From contig DASPRK010000231.1 in the NCBI GenBank assembly GCA_035624495.1, positions 185-64,184 on the forward strand: a stretch of DNA of 64,000 nucleotides, in the 5' to 3' direction. Each line of letters opens with the position of its first letter. Positions within the stretch are counted from its first letter, which is position 1. This document shows, piece by piece, positions 7,121 through 50,249 of this stretch. The stretch is from Candidatus Methylomirabilis sp. (GTDB taxonomy: Bacteria; Pseudomonadota; Gammaproteobacteria; Acidiferrobacterales; Sulfurifustaceae). The notes under the pieces were generated by a model. The model was not told the origin of the DNA. It saw only the letters and a program-made list of their open reading frames with translations, and ran no database searches. The translations under genes were made by a program, and so were the position numbers.

Positions 7121-8564
7121 CTCGATTCCGGTGCAGGCGGTCGAGACTACGGCGGACGAAGGCCACAATATCCTGCGCGCGTACCTGGTACTCGGATTCT
7201 TCGTCGCGGTGTCGCTGTGGACATTTTCGGTCGACACGCGCTACGTCTACCTCTCCGCTTACCTGTGGTTCGGTTTCATCTACGGCATGGCCCTGCAGTA
7301 CGGCCGCTTCTGCATGGCGTCGGCGATCCGCGACTTGTTCGCGGTCGGGGTGCCGCGCATGGCCGTCGGTATCATGATCGCGATCGTGCTTTTCAGCCTG
7401 GTATCGGCGTACGTCACGGCCGTCGGCAAGAGCACCTTCGGCGCCTCGCCGATCGGTCTCTACTCCGTAATCGGCGGCCTCGTATTCGGCGTCGGCATGG
7501 TGTTTACCGGCGGCTGCGCGTCGGGATCGCTCTATAAGACCGGTGAAGGCAGCATCGCGGCGCTGTTGGTAGTCTTGTCTCTCGCTTTTACGCAGGCGAT
7601 TTTCGTCGATGTGGGCGGATGGCTAAATCACCTCGTTCCGGCAGCGTGGACGGCTTCAGCAGCCGCCAAGAACCTGCCGGCGGCGCTGACGCCGACGGAC
7701 GGCTGGTTCGACCAATTTACCGCCGGCTATATTTGGAATCTGCACGCCAGCACCGTCGGCGAGCTGATCCACTTCTCAAATCCGTTCGCCGCGGCGTTCG
7801 TCGGCAACGCCCTGGTCAACTCCTTCCTGCCGGCGATCGTCATTCTGGCACTGATTTACGTACGCTGGTACCGCAAGAGCTATCTGCGCGACAAATCGGC
7901 CGTCTACCGCGGCTGGCGCACCGAACTCGCCGGTTACTGGAGCATGATTACGGCCTCGAGGCGCACCGCCATCGCCGGTCTGATCCTGGGCGTGGCCGCC
8001 GGGCTGCACATGTGGGTGATGCAGGGGCTGCAGCAGCACTTCGGAATCCTCAACGTCGGCGAACTGCTCAAGGCCATGGGCCATACGAGCGGTCTCAGTA
8101 TCCAGGACACGGTTTTCGACCCGGGCTACTTTTACATCACCACGCAGGAAGCGCAGGGCGCGGGATGGATCCTTCAGAAGCTCGGTGTCAACGAGATGAG
8201 CAATATCTTCTTTGGGCTCGACAACGGCCTGCCGAATCCGATTCTCAACCCGGTATTGTGGATGTCGTTTGCGCTCATCGGCGGCTCGGCCGTCATGGCA
8301 CTCCTCAATAACGAGTTCAAACTCAAGTGGCCATCCGCGGAGATTGCCACGTGGGCGGTGTTCGGGGGCATCCTCATGGGGCTCGGCGCGCGTATCGGGC
8401 TCGGCTGCAACATCGGCGCGTTTTTCGCGACGGTCACCAACGGCGATCCTTCCGGCTGGCTGTTCGGCTTGGGGATGACGGTGGGCGGCTTCATCGGCGT
8501 GAAATTCTTCAATTGGTGGATCGAGCGCAGAATGGCTAAAGAAGTCGTGGGGCTCGAGCTTTGA
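7101..8564 (+). CDS. YeeE/YedE (TsuA-like) sulfur-compound transporter
   Basis: Family Cys motifs GRFCMAS, GGCASG and GLGCNIG; many TM helices; RBS AAGGAG. Confidence 0.92.
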   Translation: MGHVTNNSIPVQAVETTADEGHNILRAYLVLGFFVAVSLWTFSVDTRYVYLSAYLWFGFIYGMALQYGRFCMASAIRDLFAVGVPRMAVGIMIAIVLFSLVSAYVTAVGKSTFGASPIGLYSVIGGLVFGVGMVFTGGCASGSLYKTGEGSIAALLVVLSLAFTQAIFVDVGGWLNHLVPAAWTASAAAKNLPAALTPTDGWFDQFTAGYIWNLHASTVGELIHFSNPFAAAFVGNALVNSFLPAIVILALIYVRWYRKSYLRDKSAVYRGWRTELAGYWSMITASRRTAIAGLILGVAAGLHMWVMQGLQQHFGILNVGELLKAMGHTSGLSIQDTVFDPGYFYITTQEAQGAGWILQKLGVNEMSNIFFGLDNGLPNPILNPVLWMSFALIGGSAVMALLNNEFKLKWPSAEIATWAVFGGILMGLGARIGLGCNIGAFFATVTNGDPSGWLFGLGMTVGGFIGVKFFNWWIERRMAKEVVGLEL

Positions 8565-36428: not shown

Positions 36429-36795
36429 GGAGTTGGCCAGACAGCCGCTGCCCGAGCGCCTTGTGCGCCTGGGCGGAGGAAAGTCCGGGCTCCACAGGGC
36501 AGGGTGCCAGGTAACGCCTGGGCGGCGTGAGCCGATGGAAAGCGCCACAGAAAATACACCGCCTACGTCTCACTGAGTTATTTCAGCGGGACCGGCAAGG
36601 GTGAAATGGTGCGGTAAGAGCGCACCGCGCGGGTGGCAACATCCGCGGCACGGCAAGCCCCACCCGGAGTAAGGCCGAATAGGGGAACCATGATGCGGCC
36701 CGCATCGTTCCCGGGTTGGCCGCTTGAGGCGCGTGGCGACGTGCGTCCCAGAGGAATGGCTGTCCACGACAGAACCCGGCTTATCGGCCGACTCC
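36429..36795 (+). ncRNA. rnpB: RNase P RNA, bacterial class A
   Basis: GAGGAAAGTCCGGGCTCC, GGGTGAAATGGTGCGGTAAGAGCGCACC, ACAGAACCCGGCTTA; complementary ends GGAGTTGGCC / GGCCGACTCC followed by a T-tract. Confidence 0.98.
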
Positions 36796-37028
36796 TTTTT
36801 TATTTTGACTTTAAGAGAAGATTTTAATTTTATGTTTTTGTTACTGATTTGCGTCTAATTTTGGCTGACAAACGGTGCTGCATTCAGCTCTTATTGCAAC
36901 GCGTTTCTGATTCAGGCTTCGTTGTTTCAGCTTCCCTTCCTAACTTGCTGTCCTGCAAAGAAGAAATTTTGCGGCCTAGCCAGTTTTTTCTTGACACCCC
37001 TCAGTACCGCTATCTATAGTGTCATTAA

Positions 37029-38771: not shown

Positions 38772-40483
38772 GTCGCCGCGCCCAGATGCGCCATACGGTG
38801 CGCAACGCGATCGTGTTGCTGTTTTACCTGGGCGGCATGGTGTCGCTGGCGGTGCGTGCCATGTATCTGCAGGTGTTCAACGCCGATTTCCTTCAGGAGC
38901 AGGGCAACGCCCGGCATTCGCGCCTGGTCAAGGACAACTCGCATCGCGGCATGATCCTCGACCGCAACGGCGCTCCACTCGCCGTCAGCACGCCGGTGGA
39001 TTCGGTGTGGGCGAACCCGGAGATGCTGGCGCAACAGCGTCGCAGCTGGCCGCGACTCGCGGCGCTGCTCGACATCAGTCCGAGCGAGATCGCGCAACTG
39101 GAAAGGAAATTTAACGATCGCGAATTCATGTATCTCAAGCGGCACGTCCCGCCGGCGCTGGCCGAGCGCGTGATGGCGCAAAAGGTGCCCGGGGTGGCGC
39201 TGCAGCGTGAATATCGACGCTATTATCCGCTCGGGCCAGTGGCCGGGCACGTAATCGGATTCACGAACGTCGACGACCAGGGCCAGGAGGGCGCGGAGCT
39301 ATCCTTCGATTCTTGGCTGCGCGCCGTGCCGGGCGCCAAGCGCGTGCTGCGCGACCTGCAGGGCAACGCCGTGGAGGCGGCCGAAAGCGTGGTGTTGCCC
39401 AGACCCGGCAAAGATTTGGTGCTTTCGATCGACCGCCGCATCCAGTATCTGGCCTACCGCGAGCTAAAGAACGCGGTGCAGGAACACGGCGCGCACGCGG
39501 GCAGCGCCGTGGTGATCGACGCGCATACCGGCGAGGTGCTGGCACTGGTGAACGAACCGGACTTCAATCCGAACAACCGCGCTGGTTTGCACAGCCGCGT
39601 CTTCCGCAATCGCGCGGTGACGGATCTGTTCGAACCGGGGTCGACCGTCAAGCCCTTCACCATCGCTTGCGCGCTCGAAAGCGGCAAGTACAAACCCGGC
39701 ACGGTGATCGACACCACGCCCGGAATGCTCCAGATCGGCGACCGCACCATTCGCGACGTGCATAACTACGGGGTGTTGACAGTCGCCGGCGTGATCGAGA
39801 AATCGAGCAATGTCGGTGCCTCCAAGATCGCGCTCTCGCTCAACAAGAACACCATGTGGCAAATGCTGCGCAGCGTCGGCTTCGGTCAACCGACCGGCGC
39901 GCAGCTGCCGGGCGAGATCGACGGTCTGCTCAACCCGTCGTCAAGCTGGGTTCCGGTGGAACAGGCGACCATCTCCTACGGTTACGGCATTTCCGTGACC
40001 CCGCTGCAGCTCGCGCGCGCGTACGTGGCGCTGGCCAACGATGGCGAAGAACTGCCGCTTACTTTAGTGGCGGTGGACGCGCCGCCCCCGGGTCAGCGCG
40101 TGATGTCGGCGGATACCGCGCATCGCATCCGGTCGATGCTTGAGCTCGCGGTGAGCGACGCCGGCACCGGCGTCCGCGCCCAGGTCGCGGATTATCGCGT
40201 GGCCGGCAAGACCGGCACCGTGCGCAAGCTGACCGCGAGTGGATATTCGGAAGAGAAATATGTCGCCTGGTTTGCCGGTTTCGCGCCGGCGTCTTCGCCC
40301 AGGCTCGTGATGGTTGTCGCGGTCGATGAACCCACGCGTGGCGGTTATTTCGGCGGGGAGATTGCGGCACCGGTGTTCGGGCGGGTGATGGCCGGCGCGC
40401 TGCGCTTGCTCGACGTCCCGCCCGATGCTCCGCGTCTGGGGCCGCGCGTCCTGACGGTGAAAAACGAACGGGTGGCAGAATGA
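38768..40483 (+). CDS. ftsI: Penicillin-binding protein 3
   Basis: RG.ILDRNG, EPGSTVKP (SxxK), SSN, KTGT. Confidence 0.98.
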   Translation: MSRRAQMRHTVRNAIVLLFYLGGMVSLAVRAMYLQVFNADFLQEQGNARHSRLVKDNSHRGMILDRNGAPLAVSTPVDSVWANPEMLAQQRRSWPRLAALLDISPSEIAQLERKFNDREFMYLKRHVPPALAERVMAQKVPGVALQREYRRYYPLGPVAGHVIGFTNVDDQGQEGAELSFDSWLRAVPGAKRVLRDLQGNAVEAAESVVLPRPGKDLVLSIDRRIQYLAYRELKNAVQEHGAHAGSAVVIDAHTGEVLALVNEPDFNPNNRAGLHSRVFRNRAVTDLFEPGSTVKPFTIACALESGKYKPGTVIDTTPGMLQIGDRTIRDVHNYGVLTVAGVIEKSSNVGASKIALSLNKNTMWQMLRSVGFGQPTGAQLPGEIDGLLNPSSSWVPVEQATISYGYGISVTPLQLARAYVALANDGEELPLTLVAVDAPPPGQRVMSADTAHRIRSMLELAVSDAGTGVRAQVADYRVAGKTGTVRKLTASGYSEEKYVAWFAGFAPASSPRLVMVVAVDEPTRGGYFGGEIAAPVFGRVMAGALRLLDVPPDAPRLGPRVLTVKNERVAE

Positions 40484-41955
40484 CTGCGTCCACCGAAACC
40501 CGACGCCTGCGCGAACTCCTCGACGGCATCGTGCGCGTGCCCGGTCTCGCAAACCGCGAGATCGGCGGTCTGCAGACCGACAGCCGCCGCGTACGACGCG
40601 GCGATCTTTTTCTGGCGTTGCCGGGCATGGTCGCGGACGGTCGCGACTACATCGGCGATGCCGTAGCCGGCGGCGCGGCGGCGGTCGTATATGAGTCCAA
40701 TGACGGTTATGCCCTGGACGGTGCGCCGGTGCCGGCGCTCGCCGTCGCCGACCTGCGCCGCAAAATCGGTTTCATCGCCGATCGTTTCTACGGATCGCCA
40801 TCACGGCGCCTGGTCGTCGTCGGCGTCACCGGCACGAACGGCAAAACCACTTGCACGCAGTTGCTGGCCCAGGCGCTGGACCGGCCGCCGCGGCGGTGCG
40901 CCGTGATTGGCACTCTGGGGTCCGGTTATCCCGGCGCGCTGAATGCCTCGCTGCACACCACGCCGGATGCGGTGACGGTGCAGCGCCTGATGGCGGAATT
41001 TCTCGTCCACGGCGCGTCGCACGTTTCGATGGAGGTGTCCTCACATGCGCTGGAGCAAGGACGGGTGAACGGCATTGCGTTTCACGTCGCGGTGTTCACC
41101 AATCTCACGCGTGATCACCTCGATTATCACGGCGACATGGAATCCTACGGCGCGGCCAAGGCCGGGTTGTTCGCGATGGAAGGTCTGCAGTACGCCGTGA
41201 TCAATCACGACGACTCCTTCGGGCTCGGCCTGCTGGCCGACATCGACGCGCGGATCAAGACGCTGAGCTACGGGATCGAAGGTGGCGACGTGCGAGCACG
41301 CGAGCTGCGGCTGTCGCCGGAAGGCATACATCTGCTCATCGCCACGCCGGCCGGTGATACCGAGCTGCGCAGTCCTCTGATCGGACGCTTCAATGCCTAC
41401 AACCTGCTCGCCGTACTGGCGACATTGCTGGCCTTGGGTGTGGAGCTGAAAGAGGCGGTGGCGCGGCTCTCGCGGGCGTACGCACCGCCAGGACGCGCCG
41501 AGCGTTTCGGCGGCGTGAAAGGTCTGCCGCTGGTCGTGATCGATTACGCCCATACCCCCGACGCGCTGGAAAAAATCCTGCTGGCATTGCGCGAGCACGC
41601 GCACGGGACGCTCTGGTGCGTTTTCGGCTGCGGAGGCGACCGCGATCGCGGCAAGCGCCCGGTCATGGGCGAGATCGCCGAACGGCTCGCGGACGCGGTA
41701 GTGCTGACCGACGACAACCCGCGGCACGAGTCCGGCGATACCATCATCCGCGACATCGTCGGCGGCATGACCGCGACGCCCAGGATCGTCCGCGATCGCC
41801 GCTGCGCCATCGCCGAGGCTGTCGGCGAAGCCGGCGAAGGTGACATCGTGCTGATCGCCGGCAAGGGGCATGAGGATTATCAGCAGGTGGGAGATACGCG
41901 CCTGCCGTACAGCGACCGCGATGCCGTGCGCGAGATATTGGGGGTGGCAGCATGA
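40480..41955 (+). CDS. murE: UDP-MurNAc-dipeptide--DAP ligase
   Basis: GVTGTNGKTT, MEVSSH, DYAHTPD, DDNPR, IAGKGHE. Confidence 0.98.
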   Translation: MTASTETRRLRELLDGIVRVPGLANREIGGLQTDSRRVRRGDLFLALPGMVADGRDYIGDAVAGGAAAVVYESNDGYALDGAPVPALAVADLRRKIGFIADRFYGSPSRRLVVVGVTGTNGKTTCTQLLAQALDRPPRRCAVIGTLGSGYPGALNASLHTTPDAVTVQRLMAEFLVHGASHVSMEVSSHALEQGRVNGIAFHVAVFTNLTRDHLDYHGDMESYGAAKAGLFAMEGLQYAVINHDDSFGLGLLADIDARIKTLSYGIEGGDVRARELRLSPEGIHLLIATPAGDTELRSPLIGRFNAYNLLAVLATLLALGVELKEAVARLSRAYAPPGRAERFGGVKGLPLVVIDYAHTPDALEKILLALREHAHGTLWCVFGCGGDRDRGKRPVMGEIAERLADAVVLTDDNPRHESGDTIIRDIVGGMTATPRIVRDRRCAIAEAVGEAGEGDIVLIAGKGHEDYQQVGDTRLPYSDRDAVREILGVAA

Positions 41956-42199
41956 GCCACGAAGCACTGGCCCCTTTGGGGATGCGAGTGCGGGCCGGGA
42001 GGAGGGGCCGCGCGAAGCGGCGATGCAACCGTCCGCGAGTCGCTCGTGGCCGCCAGAATGGGGCTGCCTTAGCGTGGCAAGAGTCTTGTCGGGTGGTGCG
42101 TGGTCTGAGAACGGCACGCTGGTGGCGACCGGCGAAGGCTGCCGGACGCCGGCAGTTCGGCGCGGCGCGTCTGCACGATTTTTCAGAGGCGCCAGCGTG
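41952..42199 (+). repeat. dcw junction insert A (murE-murF); open 82-codon ORF 41952-42200
   Basis: Shares GCGACCGGCGAA (42125-36) and flanking blocks with inserts B and C. The ORF overlaps the murE stop (ATGA) and the murF start (TGATG). Confidence 0.75.
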
Positions 42200-43564
42200 A
42201 TGTCTCTCGCCATTCTCGCCGATGTCCTCAAATCGCCGCTCGTCGGGCGGGACGCGGTCTTCACCGGCATCGGCCACGACACGCGCACGTTGCAGGCCGG
42301 TGATCTTTACGTGGCGATCAAGGGCGAACATTTCGACGGGCACCATTTCCTCGCCGAGGCGATCGCCGCCGGTGCCGCCGGCGCGCTGCTCGCGCGAGAC
42401 ATGGAAACGCCGTTGCCGTACGTGCGGGTGCCGAACACCCGCCTGGCGCTCGGCAACGTCGCCGCCTTCTGGCGCAATCAGTTCCGGGATATTCCCGTGA
42501 TCGCGGTGACCGGCAGCAACGGCAAGACCACGGTCAAGGAAATGATCGGCGCAATTATGGGCGAGACCGGACCCGGTTGTGTCACGCGCGGTAACCTCAA
42601 CAACGATATCGGCGTGCCGCTCACGCTTGCGCGCCTGCGTGCGGAACATCGCTATGCCGTGATCGAGATGGGGATGAACCATCCCGGCGAAATCGAATAT
42701 CTGTCGCGCCTGACGCATCCAACCATTGCGGTCATTACCAACGCCGGCGAGGCGCATCTCGCGGGCGTGGGCACGGTCGAGGACGTGGCGCGCGCCAAGG
42801 GCGAAATCTTCATTGGATTGGCGCGTGACGGCACCGCCGTGCTCAACGCCGACGACGCGCATTTCGCCCTATGGAGGACGCTGACCGGGCTGAAGAGGAG
42901 CATCACCTTCGGCCTCGACAACCCGGCGGACGTGAGCGCCGAGTACCGGCTCACCGACGTCGGCAGCGCCATTCATCTCAAAACCATCACACATGGGGAA
43001 ATCGACATGCGTGTACCACTGCTGGGTCGACACAACGTCATGAATACGCTCGCCGCCACCACCGCCGCGATCGCCGCCGGCGCTACGCTCGCGCAGGTGA
43101 AAACCGGCCTCGAGAAGCTCATGGCCGTTTCCGGCCGTCTCGAGGTGAAGCCGGGAATCAGCGGCGCGCGCGTCATTGACGACACCTACAACGCCAATCC
43201 TGCCTCGCTCGCGGCCGGCATCCAGGTGCTCAAGGAGTTCAGCGGCGAACGCGTGCTGGTGATGGGCGACATGGCCGAACTGGGCGCCGCCGCCGCCGAC
43301 ATTCATTACCGCGTCGGCGAACTCGCGAATCGCGTCGGTATCCAGCGCCTGTTCGCCATCGGCGAGTTGGCCCGCGTGGCGGTCGCCGGGTTCGGCAAGG
43401 GCGCGCGGCACTTCGAAAGTCCGGAGGCGCTGATCGAGGCGCTGCAGGACTGCATGCACGCCGATATGACGGTGCTGGTCAAGGGTTCGCGTGTGATGCG
43501 CATGGAGCGCATCGTGGCCGGCATCACCAAATCGACCGTGGCCGAAAACGGGAGGACCCGTTAA
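42200..43564 (+). CDS. murF: UDP-MurNAc-tripeptide--D-Ala-D-Ala ligase
   Basis: AVTGSNGKTTVKE, NNDIGVP, EMGMNH.GEI, DDTYNANP, GDMAELG, VKGSR. Confidence 0.98.
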   Translation: MSLAILADVLKSPLVGRDAVFTGIGHDTRTLQAGDLYVAIKGEHFDGHHFLAEAIAAGAAGALLARDMETPLPYVRVPNTRLALGNVAAFWRNQFRDIPVIAVTGSNGKTTVKEMIGAIMGETGPGCVTRGNLNNDIGVPLTLARLRAEHRYAVIEMGMNHPGEIEYLSRLTHPTIAVITNAGEAHLAGVGTVEDVARAKGEIFIGLARDGTAVLNADDAHFALWRTLTGLKRSITFGLDNPADVSAEYRLTDVGSAIHLKTITHGEIDMRVPLLGRHNVMNTLAATTAAIAAGATLAQVKTGLEKLMAVSGRLEVKPGISGARVIDDTYNANPASLAAGIQVLKEFSGERVLVMGDMAELGAAAADIHYRVGELANRVGIQRLFAIGELARVAVAGFGKGARHFESPEALIEALQDCMHADMTVLVKGSRVMRMERIVAGITKSTVAENGRTR

Positions 43565-44647
43565 GTGCTCTTTTATCTCTTTGAGACGTTGACGCGTGAT
43601 TTCTCGTTCTTCAACGTCTTTCGCTATCTCACGCTGCGCGGGATTCTCGGCGTGTTGACGGCGCTTGGCATCAGCTTTTGGATCGGCCCCGCGGTGATCC
43701 GCCGTCTCGGCTACCGCCAGCTCGGCCAGACCGTGCGCAAGGACGGGCCGCAAAGCCACCTGTCCAAGGCCGGAACGCCGACCATGGGCGGGGCCATGAT
43801 TCTCATCGCGGTCTTCATCGCCACGCTATTGTGGGCGGATCTGTCCAACCGTTTCGTGTGGACGGTGCTGTTCACCACCGCGGCGTTCGGGGCGATCGGC
43901 TGGGTCGACGATTACAAGAAGATCATCAATAAGGATCCGCGCGGCATCGGCGCCAAAGCCAAGTTCTTCTGGCAGACGGTCGCGGGGTTGGTGGCAGCGC
44001 TGTTCCTTTATTACACCGCCAAGACCCCGGCCGAGACCTCGCTGATCGTGCCGGTTTTCAAGAACATCATCATTCCCCTCGGTCCGGCGTTCATCCTGCT
44101 CGCTTATTTCGTGATCGTGGGCAGCAGCAACGCCGTGAACCTCACCGACGGACTCGACGGGCTTGCGATCATGCCGACGGTGATGGTCGCGGGCGCGCTC
44201 GGCATCTTCGCCTACGTCATGGGTCACGTGAAATTTTCCGCCTACCTCGGCTTTCCCTACGTCGCCGGCGCGGGTGAGGTGCTGATTTTCTGCGGCGCCA
44301 TCGTCGGCGCCGGCCTCGGGTTCCTGTGGTTCAACACCTACCCCGCCGTGGTGTTCATGGGTGACATCGGCGCGCTCGCGCTCGGCGCGGCGCTCGGGAC
44401 GGTGGCGGTCGCGGTGCGCCAGGAGATCGTGTTGTTCGTGATGGGCGGCATCTTCGTCATGGAAACGGTGTCGGTGATGCTGCAGGTGGCCTCGTTCAAG
44501 CTCACCGGCAAGCGCATCTTCCGAATGGCGCCACTGCATCACCATTTCGAACTTAAAGGCTGGCCGGAACCGCGGGTGATCGTGCGCTTCTGGATCATCT
44601 CGCTGATCCTGGTGCTGATCGGACTGGCAACATTGAAGATTCGGTGA
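43565..44647 (+). CDS. mraY: Phospho-N-acetylmuramoyl-pentapeptide transferase
   Basis: [33 protein letters not shown]. Confidence 0.98.
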
Positions 44648-44888
44648 AAATGAACATTTTTAAAATGAAATTGACCGCTAGCGCGCCAGGATCGCCAGGG
44701 CGAGCGGGAGGCAGACGAAGACTCTTGACTTGTCTTCGTCCCGGCGAGCGCTCGCACACGGATGTGCGGACTGGTGTTTATGGAAGTCTGTGCGTTGCGC
44801 CAGGGATGGCTGCACATAGGCGTCCTGGCGCTTCAGAAGTAGATTCATATTGTTCGAGGCTCCAAGACGAAAGGTGAAGGCAGTTGCA
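44644..44888 (+). repeat. dcw junction insert D (mraY-murD), self-complementary; ORF 44644-44877
   Basis: GCGCCAGGA ... TCCTGGCGC inverted pair and an internal GACGAAGAC / GTCTTCGTC hairpin. The ORF starts on the mraY stop (GTGA). Confidence 0.55.
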
Positions 44889-46229
44889 ATGACAAAACCG
44901 GAGACAAAACGCGCGCTGGTGGTGGGCCTCGGGCTCACGGGACTTTCGTGCGTGCGTCATCTCGCCGGGCGCGGCTATGCCGTCACGGTCGTGGACACCC
45001 GCGCGCAGCCGCCCAAGCTCGACGAGCTCGAGCGCGAATTCCCGCGCGTTCCGGTGCACCTCGGCGGGCTGCCGGCGGCGTTGTTCGACGATCCGGGGCT
45101 GCTCGTGGTGAGTCCCGGCGTATCGGTGAAGGAATCGCCGATCGCGCGTGCCATCGAACGGGGCGCGCAGGCGATCGGCGACATCGAGCTGTTCGCGCGT
45201 GAGGCGACCGCGCCGGTCATCGCGGTCACGGGCGCCAACGGCAAGAGCACGGTGACGGCATTGACCGGCGAAATGTGCCGGCAGGGGGGGCTGCGGACTG
45301 CGGTCGGCGGCAATATCGGCGTGCCGGCGCTCGAACTACTCGCCGGTTCCGAGCCGGAGGTGTACGTACTCGAACTGTCGAGCTTCCAGCTTGAGACGAC
45401 CTGGAGCCTCAACGCACGCGCGGCCGCAGTGCTCAACATCACGCCCGATCACATGGATCGCTACCGCAACATCGACGGCTATGCTGCGGCCAAGGCGCGT
45501 ATTTTCCGCGGCAACGGCACGATGGTGCTGAACGCCGACGATCACCTGGTGATGCGCATGCGCGACTCGGGGCGACGCACGGTCAGCTTTAGTCTGAGCC
45601 GGCCGCTGGAGGCACAGGATTACGGTCTGGATGAAATCGTCGGCGAAACCTGGCTGGTGCGCGGCAAACAGCCATTGATGCGGGCGCGCGAGGTGTCGCT
45701 CGCCGGCCGTCACAACCTGGCGAACGTGCTGGCAGCAATGGCGCTCGCTGAAGCCGCGGGCGTGAGCGTCGACGCCGCCCGTGCCGCGGTGCGCGGCTTC
45801 AAGGGCCTCAAGCATCGCACCGAGCTGGTGGCCGAGCGCGACAACGTGCGTTGGTACGACGACTCGAAAGGCACGAACGTCGGCGCCACGGTCGCGGCGC
45901 TGAACGGCATGACCGCGCCGGTGATCCTGATCGCAGGCGGCGACGGCAAGGGACAGGATTTCAGCGAGCTCCGCCCGGCGTGCGTGCTGCACGCACGCGC
46001 CGTGGTGCTCATCGGGCGCGATGCGCCGCTCATTGAAGCCGCGCTCGGCGGCTCGGTCCCGGTGCATCGCGCGCCGGACATGCACAACGCGGTGCGCCGC
46101 GCCGCCGGTTTGGCGCAACCGGGCGACGTGGTGTTGCTGTCGCCGGCATGCGCGAGCTTCGACATGTTCCGCAACTACGAGCATCGCGCTGAAGTCTTCC
46201 GCGCCGCGGTGCAGGAGGTAGTGGCATGA
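44889..46229 (+). CDS. murD: UDP-MurNAc-L-Ala--D-Glu ligase
   Basis: VTGANGKSTVT, ELSSFQL, DHMDRY, DSKGTNV, LSPACAS.DMF. Confidence 0.98.
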   Translation: MTKPETKRALVVGLGLTGLSCVRHLAGRGYAVTVVDTRAQPPKLDELEREFPRVPVHLGGLPAALFDDPGLLVVSPGVSVKESPIARAIERGAQAIGDIELFAREATAPVIAVTGANGKSTVTALTGEMCRQGGLRTAVGGNIGVPALELLAGSEPEVYVLELSSFQLETTWSLNARAAAVLNITPDHMDRYRNIDGYAAAKARIFRGNGTMVLNADDHLVMRMRDSGRRTVSFSLSRPLEAQDYGLDEIVGETWLVRGKQPLMRAREVSLAGRHNLANVLAAMALAEAAGVSVDAARAAVRGFKGLKHRTELVAERDNVRWYDDSKGTNVGATVAALNGMTAPVILIAGGDGKGQDFSELRPACVLHARAVVLIGRDAPLIEAALGGSVPVHRAPDMHNAVRRAAGLAQPGDVVLLSPACASFDMFRNYEHRAEVFRAAVQEVVA

Positions 46230-46506
46230 GCCGCGGAGGCCGCTTTGGACATTCCATGCAGGTACCTCGCGTGGAGCGTGGGGGTGTGAGCGCGAGCAGG
46301 GAGCAGGCTCCACCGGCGAAGAAGCGTGTGGAGGCGACCGTCGCAAGTCGCGCGCGGCCACCGGAGAGAATTTTGTATTTTCCGGCAACACTTCGACGGT
46401 CTGGCACAAAATTGCACCAGGGCACGCCGGTAGCGACCGGCGAATGGCCACAGGCCACCAGTGGTTTGGCGTGCGGAACTTGTTCGACCGTACAGAGGTG
46501 GCTCAC
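46226..46506 (+). repeat. dcw junction insert B (murD-ftsW); open 94-codon ORF 46226-46510
   Basis: GCGACCGGCGAA at 46433-44; ATGA overlaps with both the murD stop and the ftsW start. Confidence 0.75.
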
Positions 46507-47670
46507 ATGAGCGCCGTGCTGACCGCGGGCTCGACGCGCGCCGCCGGCCGCGCGCGGCCGGCGTGGGATCCCTGGTTGCTCGGCAGCACCGTGGCGCTGC
46601 TTGCGCTCGGTGTGATCATGGTTTATTCGGCCTCGGTGGCATACGCCCAACGCGAGATGCACAACGACGCCTATTTCCTCATCCGGCACGCGATCTCGAC
46701 GGGAGTCGGGCTGGTCCTGATGGTGTTCGTGACACGCACGCGCGTGCGCTGGTGGGAGGCGGCCGGGCCGTATCTGCTTCTGATCGGTATCGCCTCGCTG
46801 TTCGTGGTGCTGGTGCCGGGCATCAGCGCGCACGTCAACGGCAGCTCGCGCTGGATCAAGCTCGGTATCTTCAATCTGCAGCCGTCCGAATTCATGAAGC
46901 TCTTCATGGTGGTGTACGTGGCGGGCTATCTGGTGCGCAAACAGGAGGAACTCCGGAATTTCACTCAGGGCATCGTGATGGTCAGCCTTGTGGTGGCGGC
47001 GATCGGCGTCCTGCTGATCCTCGAACCGGACATGGGCACGCTGGTCGTGATCACCGTGACGGTTTTCACCATGCTTTTTCTCGGCGGCGTGCGCTTCTGG
47101 CACTTCATGGTGGTGCTCGGTGCAGGCGTGGGCAGCATGGTGTTGCTGACAATCATCTCGCCGTACCGCATGGCGCGCGCCACCAGCTTCCTCAATCCCT
47201 GGGCCGATCCGTTCAACACCGGTTTCCAGCTGGTGCAGGCGCTGATCGCTTTCGGGCGCGGCCAGTGGTTCGGCGTGGGCTTGGGCGCGAGCGTACAGAA
47301 GCTTTTCTATTTGCCGGCGGCGCACACCGATTTCGTGTTCGCGGTAATGGCCGAGGAGCTCGGTTTGATTTTCGTGCTCGGCGTGATGGTGCTGTTCGGC
47401 ATCATCATCGTGCGCGCCTTCGCCATTGCGCGCCAGGCTGAGGTGGCGGGCATGATCTACGGCGCGCGGCTGGCGCAGGGGCTCGGTCTGCTGATCGGCA
47501 GCCAGGCCATGATCAACATGGGCGTTAACATGGGTCTGCTGCCGACCAAGGGTTTGACGCTGCCGTTCCTGAGCTATGGCGGATCGAGCATGATCGTGAG
47601 CTGCATCGCCGTCGGCCTGCTGCTGTTGATCGGGCGCGAGGCGCGCGGCGGCAAGTGGGGAAAGGAATGA
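46507..47670 (+). CDS. ftsW: Peptidoglycan glycosyltransferase FtsW
   Basis: RWI...QPSEF.K, EPDMG, HTDFVFAV..EELG, LPFLSYGGSS. Confidence 0.98.
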   Translation: MSAVLTAGSTRAAGRARPAWDPWLLGSTVALLALGVIMVYSASVAYAQREMHNDAYFLIRHAISTGVGLVLMVFVTRTRVRWWEAAGPYLLLIGIASLFVVLVPGISAHVNGSSRWIKLGIFNLQPSEFMKLFMVVYVAGYLVRKQEELRNFTQGIVMVSLVVAAIGVLLILEPDMGTLVVITVTVFTMLFLGGVRFWHFMVVLGAGVGSMVLLTIISPYRMARATSFLNPWADPFNTGFQLVQALIAFGRGQWFGVGLGASVQKLFYLPAAHTDFVFAVMAEELGLIFVLGVMVLFGIIIVRAFAIARQAEVAGMIYGARLAQGLGLLIGSQAMINMGVNMGLLPTKGLTLPFLSYGGSSMIVSCIAVGLLLLIGREARGGKWGKE

Positions 47671-48740
47671 GCCGCGTGCTGATCATGGCGGGCGGCACCG
47701 GTGGGCACGTGTTCCCGGGCCTCGCCGTTGCGCGCCGTCTGATCGAAAAGCAAGTGCAGGTCGTCTGGCTCGGTACGCAACGCGGCCTCGAGGCACGCGC
47801 GGTCCCGGCCTCGGGATTGGCCATCGACATGGAATGGATCACGATCCAGGGCGTGCGGCGCAAGGGCTGGCTCGGCTGGTTGCTGCTGCCGTTCACGCTT
47901 CTTTATGCGATGGCGCAGGTGTTTCGCGTGCTGCGCCGCCGCAAACCCGACGCGGTGCTGTCGATGGGCGGTTTCGTCGCCGGGCCTGGCGGTCTTATGG
48001 CCTGGATCACGCACACGCCGTTGCTGATTCACGAGCAGAATGCGATCCCGGGCATGACCAATAAGTGGCTGGCACTGCTCGCGGACCAGGTCCTGAGCGG
48101 TTTCCCCGACGCCTTCGGCAGCCATATTGCAGCACGGCCGGTCGGTAATCCGGTGCGTGATGAGATCGCCCGGCTCTCCCCGCCGGAGCAGCGGTTTGCC
48201 GACCGTGGCGGCTGCCTGCATCTGCTTGTCGTCGGCGGCAGCCAGGGCGCGAAAATTTTCAATGACGTCATCCCGGACGCCGTGAAAACGCTGCCCGCCG
48301 GCAGTTGTCCGGAGGTTTGGCATCAGTGCGGACGCAATGCCGCGGCCCGGGTCACCATGGCCTATGACGGAGTTCCGGCCAAGGTCACCGAATTCATCGA
48401 CGACATGGCCGCTGCCTACGCCTGGGCGGACGTGATTCTCTGCCGCGCTGGCGCCATGACCATCGCCGAACTGGCGGCCTCGGGTTCGGCCGCGATTCTG
48501 GTTCCGTATCTGCAGGCAGTGGACGACCATCAGACAGCCAACGCGCGTTTTCTCGCCAGCCGCGACGCCGCCGTGCTGGTGCCGCAACCGGAGTTCACGG
48601 CGGCGCGGGTGCGCGAATTGCTGGAAGGTTTCAGCGCGAATCGCGAGCTCTTACTGAAGATGGCGCGCGCGGCGCGCCATCTCGCTGTCACCGACGCTGC
48701 CGAGACAGTAGCGAATCTCTGCCTGGAGGTAGCGACATGA
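47667..48740 (+). CDS. murG: Undecaprenyl-PP-MurNAc-pentapeptide GlcNAc transferase
   Basis: GGTGGHVFP, HEQN, GGSQGA, RAGA.T..E, HQ..NA. Confidence 0.98.
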   Translation: MSRVLIMAGGTGGHVFPGLAVARRLIEKQVQVVWLGTQRGLEARAVPASGLAIDMEWITIQGVRRKGWLGWLLLPFTLLYAMAQVFRVLRRRKPDAVLSMGGFVAGPGGLMAWITHTPLLIHEQNAIPGMTNKWLALLADQVLSGFPDAFGSHIAARPVGNPVRDEIARLSPPEQRFADRGGCLHLLVVGGSQGAKIFNDVIPDAVKTLPAGSCPEVWHQCGRNAAARVTMAYDGVPAKVTEFIDDMAAAYAWADVILCRAGAMTIAELAASGSAAILVPYLQAVDDHQTANARFLASRDAAVLVPQPEFTAARVRELLEGFSANRELLLKMARAARHLAVTDAAETVANLCLEVAT

Positions 48741-48845
48741 GCCGCGGAGCAGGGGCCACACGCAGTGGGGATGCGACCGGCGAATTGGCGCAGGACGCCG
48801 ACAAGATGGCGCATCGTGTTCCACGATCTTACGGAGGCGGCGCGC
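48737..48845 (+). repeat. dcw junction insert C (murG-murC); open 38-codon ORF 48737-48853
   Basis: GCGACCGGCGAA at 48773-84; first 13 nt identical to insert B. The [41 protein letters not shown] overlaps the murG stop and the murC start. Confidence 0.75.
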
Positions 48846-50249
48846 ATGCGTGACCGCGTTAAATGCGTTCATTTCGTCGGCGTCGGCGGCGTCGGCATGT
48901 GCGGCATTGCTGAGGTCCTGCACAACCTTCAATTCGAGGTATCCGGCTCGGACGTGCGGGAATCGCCCAATACCCGGCGCTTGACATCGCTCGGGGTGAA
49001 AGTCGCCATCGGTCACGACCCGCAACTGGTCAGGGGTGTGGATGTGGTGGTGGTGTCGTCGGCGGTCGATGAAACCAACCCCGAGGTCCGCGCCGCACGT
49101 GCAGCGAAGATTCCGGTTATCCCGCGCGCGGAAATGCTCGGTGAACTGATGCGTCTGCAACGTGGCATCGCCATCGCCGGCACGCACGGCAAGACCACGA
49201 CGACGAGTCTGGTGGCGAGCTGTCTGGCCGAAGGTGGCCTCGATCCGACCTTCGTGATCGGCGGACGCCTGAACAGCGCCGGCACCAACGCGCGCCTGGG
49301 GCGCGGCCAGTATCTGGTGGCGGAGGCCGACGAGAGTGACGCTTCGTTTCTGCACCTGGCTCCGTTCATGGCGGTAGTGACCAACATCGATGCCGACCAC
49401 ATGGGCACGTACGGCGGCGATTTCAACCGCCTGAAGCAGGCATTCGTTGATTTCCTCCAGCAGCTTCCGTTCTACGGACTGGCGCTGCTGTGCCTCGACG
49501 ATCCGGCGGTGCGCGAGGTCATCCCGCGCGTGCACCGGCCGGTGCTGACCTATGGCACGACGCCAGAGGCCGATCTGCGCGCGGTCGATATCCGCCAGGA
49601 AGAGCTCAAGATGCATTTCACCGCCGAGCTGCGCGGCCGCAAGAAATGGCTGCCGGTGACGCTCAACCAGCCCGGGCGCCACAACGTGCTGAACGCGCTC
49701 GCCGCGATCGGCATCGCGCATGAGCTCGGCGTGAAGGAGGTCGCCATCACGCGCGCTCTTGCCGGCTTCGCCGGGATCGGGCGGCGCTTCCAGATCAACG
49801 GCCGCGTTGCGTGCGACGGCGGCGACGTAATCCTGGTGGACGATTATGCGCATCATCCGCGCGAGATCGCGGCCACGGTCGAGGCGGCGCGCGCGAGCTG
49901 GCCGCGGCGCCGGCTGGTGGTGGTGTTCCAGCCGCACCGCTACACGCGCACCCACGATCTGTTGGACGACTTCAGCACCGTGCTTTCCGGGATTGACGCG
50001 TTGATCGTCACCGAAGTGTATGCCGCCGGCGAGGCGCCGATCAGCGGTGCCGATGGACGCGCGTTGTGCCGCGCCATCCGCGCGCGTGGCAAGACCGACC
50101 CGGTATTCATCGAAGATGTCGCGACGCTCCCGCAGGCACTGGCCGATGTGCTGCAGGCAAATGACGTGCTGCTGACGATGGGGGCGGGTTCCATCGGTGC
50201 GGTCGCTGCTTCACTGCCGCAGGCGCTCGGGCAGAGGAGAACCGGATGA
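48846..50249 (+). CDS. murC: UDP-N-acetylmuramate--L-alanine ligase
   Basis: [38 protein letters not shown]. Confidence 0.98.

Follow-up and report, generated by a model that had tools for sequence, protein, structure and literature searches.

A structured repeat family at co-oriented operon junctions of Proteobacteria, present in a dcw cluster, as a probable translational relay

Mycobacterial interspersed repetitive units (MIRUs; Supply et al. 1997) insert at start codons and carry an internal open reading frame (ORF) coupled at −4, going by the passages that two later papers give to them (PMC12548453, PMC3184786). Here we describe a repeat family that came to light through three inserts in the division and cell wall (dcw) gene cluster of a 64-kb stretch of contig DASPRK010000231.1 from Candidatus Methylomirabilis sp. 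(the window). The family resembles MIRUs as those passages present them: its units are short, lie inside operons and appear to be transcribed within polycistronic mRNA, the ends of an internal ORF overlap the flanking stop and start codons with −4 spacing, and there are tandem arrays, sites that are filled in one relative and empty in another, and no transposase of the unit's own (PMC12548453, PMC3184786). The likeness is one of organisation, and the family differs in belonging to Beta- and Gammaproteobacteria and in having a longer unit (∼110 nt). Beyond the MIRU description we note two features, namely three covarying helices at the start codon and the Shine-Dalgarno (SD) region, and an apparent rewriting of the C-terminal codons of the upstream gene.

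Repetitive extragenic palindromic (REP) sequences and bacterial interspersed mosaic elements (BIMEs), which are mobilised by REP-associated tyrosine transposases (RAYTs), are also short hairpin repeats rich in G+C, of which a genome has many copies; they sometimes lie between cistrons and affect mRNA. Ribosomes are delivered to a downstream gene by engineered bicistronic designs and by natural leader ORFs (PMC12548453); these share with our repeat a short ORF ending on the start of the target gene and independence from local mRNA structure, but each is a single leader, designed or native, and they do not form a repeat family that proliferates. The Correia repeat enclosed elements (CREE) found in Neisseria are likewise small non-autonomous repeats within the dcw cluster, where they alter the expression of their neighbours, as a passage of one paper reports (PMC2649163, citing Snyder et al. 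2003), and they create promoters and RNase III sites (PMC2649163).

The window holds a complete dcw cluster, in which stop-to-start gaps of 244, 277 and 105 nt are found at murE-murF (insert A), murD-ftsW (insert B) and murG-murC (insert C). These equal the 248, 281 and 109 bp given by an earlier reading of the letters of the window (the sequence-only reading), which counted from the ATGA. The core motif GCGACCGGCGAA has three exact matches in the 64 kb, all on the + strand (42125, 46433 and 48773), against 0.04 expected and with none of 100 shuffles giving three; there is one in each insert and, as that reading had stated, they end 64, 63 and 62 nt 5′ of the ATG of murF, ftsW and murC. The following observations of that reading were likewise reproduced: a new SD-like site stands at the end of each insert (AGAGG, AGAGG and GGAGG), the string common to A and B and the 13 nt common to B and C are both present, and each insert is free of stops from the ATGA to the downstream start (82, 94 and 38 codons) while its peptide is not conserved. 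The three inserts can be aligned with one another over their first ∼25 nt (the upstream gene's last codons among them) and over their final ∼80 nt, and the mini-ORF ends on the downstream start as TGATG (A), ATGA (B) or ATGCGTGA (C).

We consider it probable, at roughly 0.7, that the inserts belong to a repeat family that colonises co-oriented operon junctions as a translational relay, keeping the coupling and so being tolerated even in an essential operon. By analogy, the working principle appears to be the one already known from mycobacterial MIRUs, and the family would be their proteobacterial counterpart.

To survey the family, we scanned public metagenome contigs with the pattern TGCGACCG-N0-5-GCGAAT-N8-12-GCCGAC, which returned at least 120 stretches, and built a profile from the scan matches, which gave 99 matches in 88 loci, 95 of them distinct; these and all later family counts of starts, stops, phases, flanks and orientations are among the matches listed. 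The unit is ∼107–113 nt long and reads, in outline, SD-N6-(A/G)TGAGC, a hairpin (P2), GGGGATGCGACCG..GCGAA..GCCGAC, ∼35 variable nt and GGAGGC-N6-(A/G)TGA. In the consensus, the 5′ half is composed of GGAGG-N6 (inside the end of the upstream gene), (A/G)TGAGC, GGAGCAGGGGCCCC-loop-GGGG (P2) and ATGCGACCG-N1-4-GCGAA, and the 3′ half of ∼14 nt, GAC, ∼35 variable nt and (A/C)GGAGGC-N6-(A/G)TGA. Both the 5′ flank and the 3′ end carry the consensus GGAGGYRGCGRCATGA, such that the unit ends are direct repeats, and units form head-to-tail arrays with a period of ∼113 nt at five loci (L110, L124, L153, L189 and L197); tandem arrays are a feature of MIRUs too, and inserts A and B are decayed arrays.

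Copies of the family occur at many unrelated operon junctions in several proteobacterial lineages, and their occupancy varies between close relatives. The genes upstream of the units include sdhD, sucC, a livG-like ATPase, a NuoF-like subunit, a solute-binding protein, trigger factor and a histidine kinase, and those downstream sdhA, sucD, livF-like ATPases, an Fe-S subunit, an opp-type permease, def, clpP, a bioF-like gene, ddl and a NarL-type regulator. The flanking pairs are classic operon partners (sdhD-sdhA, sucC-sucD, livG-livF, tig-clpP, kinase-regulator), though the operons have no function in common. The sequence-only reading had described the inserts at dcw junctions, but only one of the metagenome copies with comparable flanking ORFs (∼70 ORFs) adjoins a dcw gene; dcw-specific targeting is thus rejected, and what the dcw cluster offers is simply many tightly coupled junctions in a row. 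All hosts that could be named belong to the Proteobacteria (Ca. Muproteobacteria, Acidiferrobacterales, Sulfuricella, Burkholderiales and Ralstonia), in contrast to the mycobacterial hosts of MIRUs.

One copy lies on the chromid of Ralstonia sp. RRA.1, between a DUF58 gene and a TgpA-like gene (L204 2506–2619; NZ_CP146092.1 609845–609965), and is the single copy found on the 1.98-Mb chromid of this cultured strain. Its mini-ORF starts at an ATG 8 nt 5′ of the upstream TAA stop (an 11-nt overlap) and ends on ATGA, and its helix P1 is a perfect 7 bp (GGCAGCA/TGCTGCC). A plasmid search returned this chromid copy as the single match for the ATG-type unit and none for the GTG-type unit. A phage origin was dropped, with zero matches in 50,697 phage records.

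Copies point the same way as the operon: among those for which the orientation of both flanks could be told, 28 were co-oriented with both neighbours and 1 was antisense to both. A DNA-level element of REP/RAYT type or of MITE type (miniature transposable elements with inverted repeats), with hairpins recognised by a transposase acting in trans and a mini-ORF incidental to high G+C content, would account for a conserved hairpin beside conserved flanks, for variable occupancy and tandem copies, and for a second frame that is often open through composition. However, this orientation bias speaks against it, as do the absence of inverted doublets, all arrays being head-to-tail, and unit ends that are direct repeats of GGAGGYRGCGRCATGA without terminal inverted repeats, the 5′ end ATGAGCAGGGAG not being complementary to the 3′ end. 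REPs are simple palindromes of 20–40 nt found in both orientations and in inverted pairs, with no coupled ORF, whereas the unit here is ∼110 nt, strictly co-oriented, contains only one simple hairpin (P2) and carries an SD, a start and a stop. CREE are bounded by 26-bp terminal inverted repeats and a TA duplication; the repeat unit differs in its direct-repeat ends, the inserts have no sigma-70-like promoter, and RNase III sites of the CREE kind are not seen. The family therefore falls outside the definitions of REP and of MITE/Correia elements, and Rfam covariance models found no match to the inserts at the gathering threshold or at E ≤ 5. Searches of a paper library for the repeat sequence and for MIRU-like elements in Proteobacteria returned nothing relevant. 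Together with the reading-phase and base-pairing results given below, we regard the DNA-level explanation as improbable.

The position of the mini-ORF with respect to its neighbours is the second line of evidence. The sequence (A/G)TGAGC is in place in 65 of the 95 distinct copies and nearly always overlaps the TGA of a long upstream ORF. Of 64 copies with both the start codon and a stop in frame within the contig, 33 end on NTGA 99–120 nt downstream, with GGAGG before the NTGA, so that the mini-ORF starts on the upstream stop and stops on the next start. Measured from the unit's start codon to the one that follows, the distance is 2 mod 3 in 34 of 45 copies (chi-square p = 1.4e-8), a test that is independent of stop codons, and this phase is spread over length classes of 86, 107, 110, 113 and 122 nt. 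Reading phase is thus kept through changes in length while the peptide drifts, and neither this phase bias nor an exact NTGA at both ends is expected of a DNA-level element. In dcw clusters, all 10 of 10 copies, in five genomes, have an open ORF ending at the downstream start. The sequence-only reading had proposed an element that occupies stop/start overlaps and survives by preserving coupling; junction occupancy, phase, orientation and peptide drift agree with this, while its mobility is something that we infer.

The same data bear on whether the mini-ORFs are genes for functional small proteins. This would be in keeping with the open frames and with the strong contexts of SD and start codon, but two different frames are used across the conserved core: in one subfamily ATGAGCAGGGAGCAGGGG is translated as MSREQG, with GMRP following over the core, and a second, with one extra base, reads GAGAPRSGDATG, which explains why the peptide is not conserved. 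In addition, peptides are unrelated even in orthologous inserts, no Pfam match was found for the mini-ORF peptide, and the consensus peptide (a 40-aa query) has only four look-alikes among 5.8 billion database proteins. We therefore reject a microprotein role, which we consider extremely improbable.

The unit also contains three helices that covary, two of which involve the start codon of the mini-ORF and the downstream SD region. P1 is formed by the 7 nt before the unit start codon together with the first base of that codon, paired with bases after GCGAA (for example GACGGCA/TGCCGTC, TGGCAGCA/TGCTGCCA, GAAGGCA/TGCCTTC and AGCGTCA/TGACGCT); the start codon's first base covaries with the base that it pairs with (A-U in 38 copies, G-C in 30). 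P2 is the hairpin that follows (CCCCGC/GCGGGG, CCAC/GTGG, CCTTCC/GGAAGG), and in P3 the 6 nt that precede GAC are paired with a strand that begins at the fourth position of GGAGG (GTCGCC/GGCGAC, GCTGCC/GGCAGC, TAGCC/GGCTA, GCGGCC/GGCCGC). Owing to the gaps in the raw MAFFT alignment, RNAalifold run on it found no more than part of P2, and the named helices were therefore tested in fixed registers, in which the result is unchanged. The covariation analysis that the sequence-only reading had suggested as a check was carried out on 81 sequences: 80.4% of cells were paired versus 71.6 ± 0.6 in shuffles, and the covariation score was 0.280 versus 0.145, with 0 of 500 shuffles as high in either case, while slid registers gave at most 55% pairing and covariation of at most 0.079. 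Changes on both sides were seen in 14 of 18 pairs, and duplexes were more stable within copies than between copies (p ≤ 0.0005). Whole units fold better in the sense than in the antisense direction (51 to 8), and P1 positions hold 43 G.U against 22 A.C combinations; RNA structure is therefore favoured, and the latter excess counts further against a DNA-level element. The small hairpins that had been pointed out after each core motif (CTGCCGG/CCGGCAG, TGGCC/GGCCA and GGCG/CGCC) are present as read, but they are local and are not the covarying helices of the family: they are formed between P1's 3′ strand and P3's 5′ strand, and are seen in the copies of the window, L004 and L028 and not across the family.

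Insert A is represented in RNA data. In two peat metatranscriptomes, contigs run from murE across the ATGA into the insert (41732–42004 and 41771–41995) and through it (42011–42186). Other metatranscriptome contigs match only the conserved core of B (46275–46322) and C (48744–48781) and then continue into foreign flanks, which indicates that further copies of the family, at other places in these peat communities, are transcribed. A role as promoter or terminator is not supported, as no sigma-70-like promoter and no + strand terminator-like site was found in the inserts.

Transcription of the inserts, helices that covary on the transcribed strand, strict co-orientation with the operon and high nucleotide conservation between distant hosts (for example Sulfuricella and the Muproteobacteria metagenome-assembled genome (MAG)) could also be expected of a host cis-regulatory RNA, recruited repeatedly as a site for processing or stability or as a translation tuner that sets stoichiometry, with the mini-ORF being secondary. 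Such a role is compatible with a relay and does not exclude it. As the main function of the unit, however, we find it unlikely, since tandem arrays, decayed copies and presence or absence in close relatives resemble proliferation and not regulation, the flanking operons share no function, and a purely structural role leaves the conserved reading phase unexplained.

Comparison with relatives shows how variable the junctions are. The murE protein of the window is also found on metagenome contigs from peat and wetland, and the closest genome is a Ca. Muproteobacteria MAG (L004; MurD identity 84%). We measured every dcw junction in 80 related loci; they mostly overlap, with inserts variably present or absent. 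L004 has related inserts at murE-murF, ftsW-murG and murG-murC and an empty ATGA overlap at murD-ftsW, such that occupancy is reversed between the two genomes, with murD-ftsW filled in the window only and ftsW-murG in L004 only; these are the differences from empty sites in relatives that had been suggested as a test of insertion. At the empty ftsW-murG junction, the murG start is most likely the ATG at 47667, which forms an ATGA overlap with the ftsW stop and aligns with the start in L004, and not the GTG farther upstream, at 47655, that is listed as the ORF start. Between the window and L004, orthologous inserts are set apart by many indels and their peptides are unrelated, yet both remain open to the downstream start (82 versus 83 codons at murE-murF and 38 versus 36 at murG-murC). 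Related units also occur at dcw junctions of an Acidiferrobacterales genome (L025), of Sulfuricella sp. T08 (L028, twice) and of two Burkholderiales MAGs, in one at murB-ddl (L052) and in the other just past ddl, probably at ddl-ftsQ (L064).

Nine of the related loci (L008, L020, L026, L033, L042, L046, L049, L059 and L061, from Gallionellaceae, Sulfuricella and Burkholderiales) carry unrelated long palindromic repeats of heptamer-like words at mraY-murD, ftsW-murG, murG-murC and murB-ddl (e.g. CCGCAAAGGACGCAAAG...CTTTGCGTCCTTTGCGG, CCACAGAGAACACAGAG... and CGCGGAGACGCGGAG...), so several repeat families gather at dcw junctions.

In the two filled/empty pairs, homology between the relatives ends at the SD-like purines before the stop and restarts at the downstream ATGAGC, and in the filled allele both copies of the junction have the element-type spacer instead of the native one. 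These two comparisons suggest that the unit takes the place of the spacer that separates the native SD from the start codon. In the family as a whole, the 5′ flank (..GGTAGCGGC ATGAGC) is conserved as strongly as the 3′ end (GGAGGCGGCGGC ATGA), upstream proteins have tails of the E/G-V/A-A-A/T type, and in the filled/empty pairs the C-terminus changes from REETK to QEVVA in MurD and from GGKWGKE to GGGAT in FtsW; the unit therefore appears to bring with it the last 2–4 codons and the stop of the upstream gene. A bolder version of this would make the unit an undescribed structured 'coupling cassette' that integrates exactly between SD and start codon at operon junctions, replacing the spacer and the last upstream codons, that ties downstream initiation to upstream translation by two RNA helices, and that needs no conventional transposase for its horizontal spread in Beta- and Gammaproteobacteria, which might proceed through template switching at SD/ATGA microhomology, for instance; this we offer tentatively and with low confidence.

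Anatomy, reading phase and covariation are observed, and from them we propose a translational relay as the most likely function of the unit. A ribosome terminating on the upstream NTGA would melt P1, re-initiate on the mini-ORF and translate through the unit; this translation would melt P3 and free the downstream SD, and the ribosome would then terminate on the downstream NTGA and re-initiate on the downstream gene. Such a relay would explain why reading phase is conserved without conservation of the peptide, and why orientation is strict; the native tight coupling would be kept, and the insert would therefore be tolerated in an essential operon. Translation of the mini-ORF, the logic of unwinding and the means of spread are the conditional parts of this scheme.

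Several points count against a translational relay, or reduce what the results say for it. Coupling through the mini-ORF is something that we infer from anatomy, and we know of no enzyme that mobilises the unit. Within the window alone, the absence of stops is only weakly improbable: the frame stays open in 27% (A), 14% (B) and 57% (C) of shuffles, and all three inserts are open in the downstream gene's frame as well, a second frame often being open from composition; the case therefore rests on relatives. Among these, only about half of the copies have perfect architecture, with 17 reading through and 10 stopping early, and 30 of the 95 distinct copies have no canonical start within 75 nt, which include point-decayed starts (GCGAGC), a longer 5′ module and truncated copies; moreover, the metagenome scan was seeded with the core motif and so detects only copies with an intact core. 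As to structure, the helices were derived by eye from the same sequences that were used in the tests, the shuffle tests are inflated by related copies, P3 taken by itself has a slightly greater stability on the antisense strand, and single-sequence folding is ordinary for the G+C content (z of −0.3 to −1.9 for the inserts). The RNA contigs could hold contaminating DNA.

We delimited the copies in the window with nhmmer and the full-unit profile (Table 1), which detected no further copies in the 64 kb besides A, B and C. Inserts A and B had been taken for single elements, but nhmmer splits both into partial units: insert C is one intact unit, and in A and B alike two to three partial units make up a decayed array. 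Insert C is orthologous to the L004 copy (∼80% identity, four indels), and its P2 differs from that of L004 by a compensatory change (CCCCGC/GCGGGG in L004). The 3′ strand of P3 in C coincides with the end of the murC SD and its spacer, and a 25-nt repeat (D16) at the 5′ end of B is common to A and C.

Table 1. Coordinates of the inserts, their units and helices, and the flanking genes in the window
Feature	Positions	Strand	Remarks
murE	40480-41955		
murF	42200-43564		
murD	44889-46229		
ftsW	46507-47670		
murG	end 48740		
murC	48846-50249		
SD-like site, A	42185-42189		AGAGG
SD-like site, B	46494-46498		AGAGG
SD-like site, C	48833-48837		GGAGG
Insert A mini-ORF, 82 codons	41952-42200	+	ATGA on murE stop, TGATG on murF start
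A partial unit 1	41939-41987	+	5′ repeat, start codon, P2-like hairpin; nhmmer E = 2.5e-5, profile 4-55
A partial unit 2	41994-42059	+	GGGGCC..GCGAAGCGGCGATGCAACCGTCCGCGAGTCGC; nhmmer E = 2.1e-5, profile 21-88
A partial unit 3	42125-42200	+	core motif to new SD; nhmmer E = 5.8e-5, profile 52-130
Insert B mini-ORF, 94 codons	46226-46510	+	ATGA on murD stop, ATGA on ftsW start
B 5′ unit end	46212-46238	+	murD last codons, start codon ATGAGCCGCGGAG; nhmmer E = 0.095, weak
B internal near-complete unit	46279-46381	+	GTGAGC..GGGAGCAGGCTCCAC..GTGGAGGCGACCGTCGCAAGTCGC; nhmmer E = 1.2e-4, profile 4-102
B 3′ partial unit	46433-46508	+	core motif to SD; nhmmer E = 0.49, weak alone; exact motif; aligns with A and C
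Empty ftsW-murG junction	47667-47670	+	ATGA; unit present there in L004
Insert C, single intact unit	48724-48843	+	nhmmer E = 3.9e-24, profile 4-125
C mini-ORF, 38 codons	48737-48853	+	ATG on murG stop (ATGA); stop on murC codons 2-3
C helix P1, 5′ strand	48730-48737	+	murG last codons and A of mini-ORF ATG; partner 48786-48793, 6/8 pairs
C hairpin P2	48756-48768	+	CCAC-ACGCA-GTGG
C core motif	48773-48784	+	GCGACCGGCGAA, exact match
C helix P3, 5′ strand	48794-48799	+	partner 48836-48841, 5/6 pairs

Before the core motif, A and B share GGCACGC-N-GGT-N-GCGA (42113–42128 and 46421–46436), which is loosely like a sigma-54 −24/−12 site (GGCAC-N5-TGC) and is absent from C and from the family consensus. 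A sigma-54-like reading of GGCACG-N4-TGGC at this place was dropped, as in the family consensus this place is taken by P2's 3′ arm (GGGGAT) and the GG is missing from C. A second module of ∼50 nt (GAGGCCGCT..CGGCATCCTG..CGCGGCACTCGCGCATCC.TGCGC.TCGCAGGGG) replaces or precedes the usual 5′ part of the unit at 46239–46283 in the window, at 7298–7518 and 14005–14102 in L025, and in L116, L154, L158 and L200; at murG-murC of L025 it is joined directly to the 3′ end of the unit and the core is absent. The repeat family is modular.

Two neighbouring features lie outside the family. The spacer between mraY and murD (44648–44888, 241 nt) is richer in A+T and contains the hairpins GACGAAGAC/GTCTTCGTC (44714–44740) and GCGCCAGG/CCTGGCGC (44797–44831), a terminator-like stem (44752–44769) and a 56-aa minus-strand ORF called on the source contig (L001). 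Directly upstream of the mraZ/rsmH start of the dcw cluster is a bacterial class A RNase P RNA (36429–36799, + strand, 328.6 bits).

For annotation, the units account for gaps of 100–300 nt in otherwise overlapping operons, can mislead the choice of start codon and alter the C-terminal residues of upstream proteins, while the mini-ORFs themselves are almost never called by gene callers. Sets of MIRUs with variable numbers of tandem repeats (MIRU-VNTR) are a strain marker for tuberculosis, and the variable-length arrays found here could serve in the same way as strain markers in metagenomes. For the study of termination-reinitiation, the family offers dozens of natural variants that differ in length, use two reading frames and carry compensatory helix changes. 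If the units relay ribosomes as their anatomy suggests, the MIRU solution would not be a mycobacterial oddity: a ribosome-relaying operon repeat would have arisen, or spread, in environmental Proteobacteria also.

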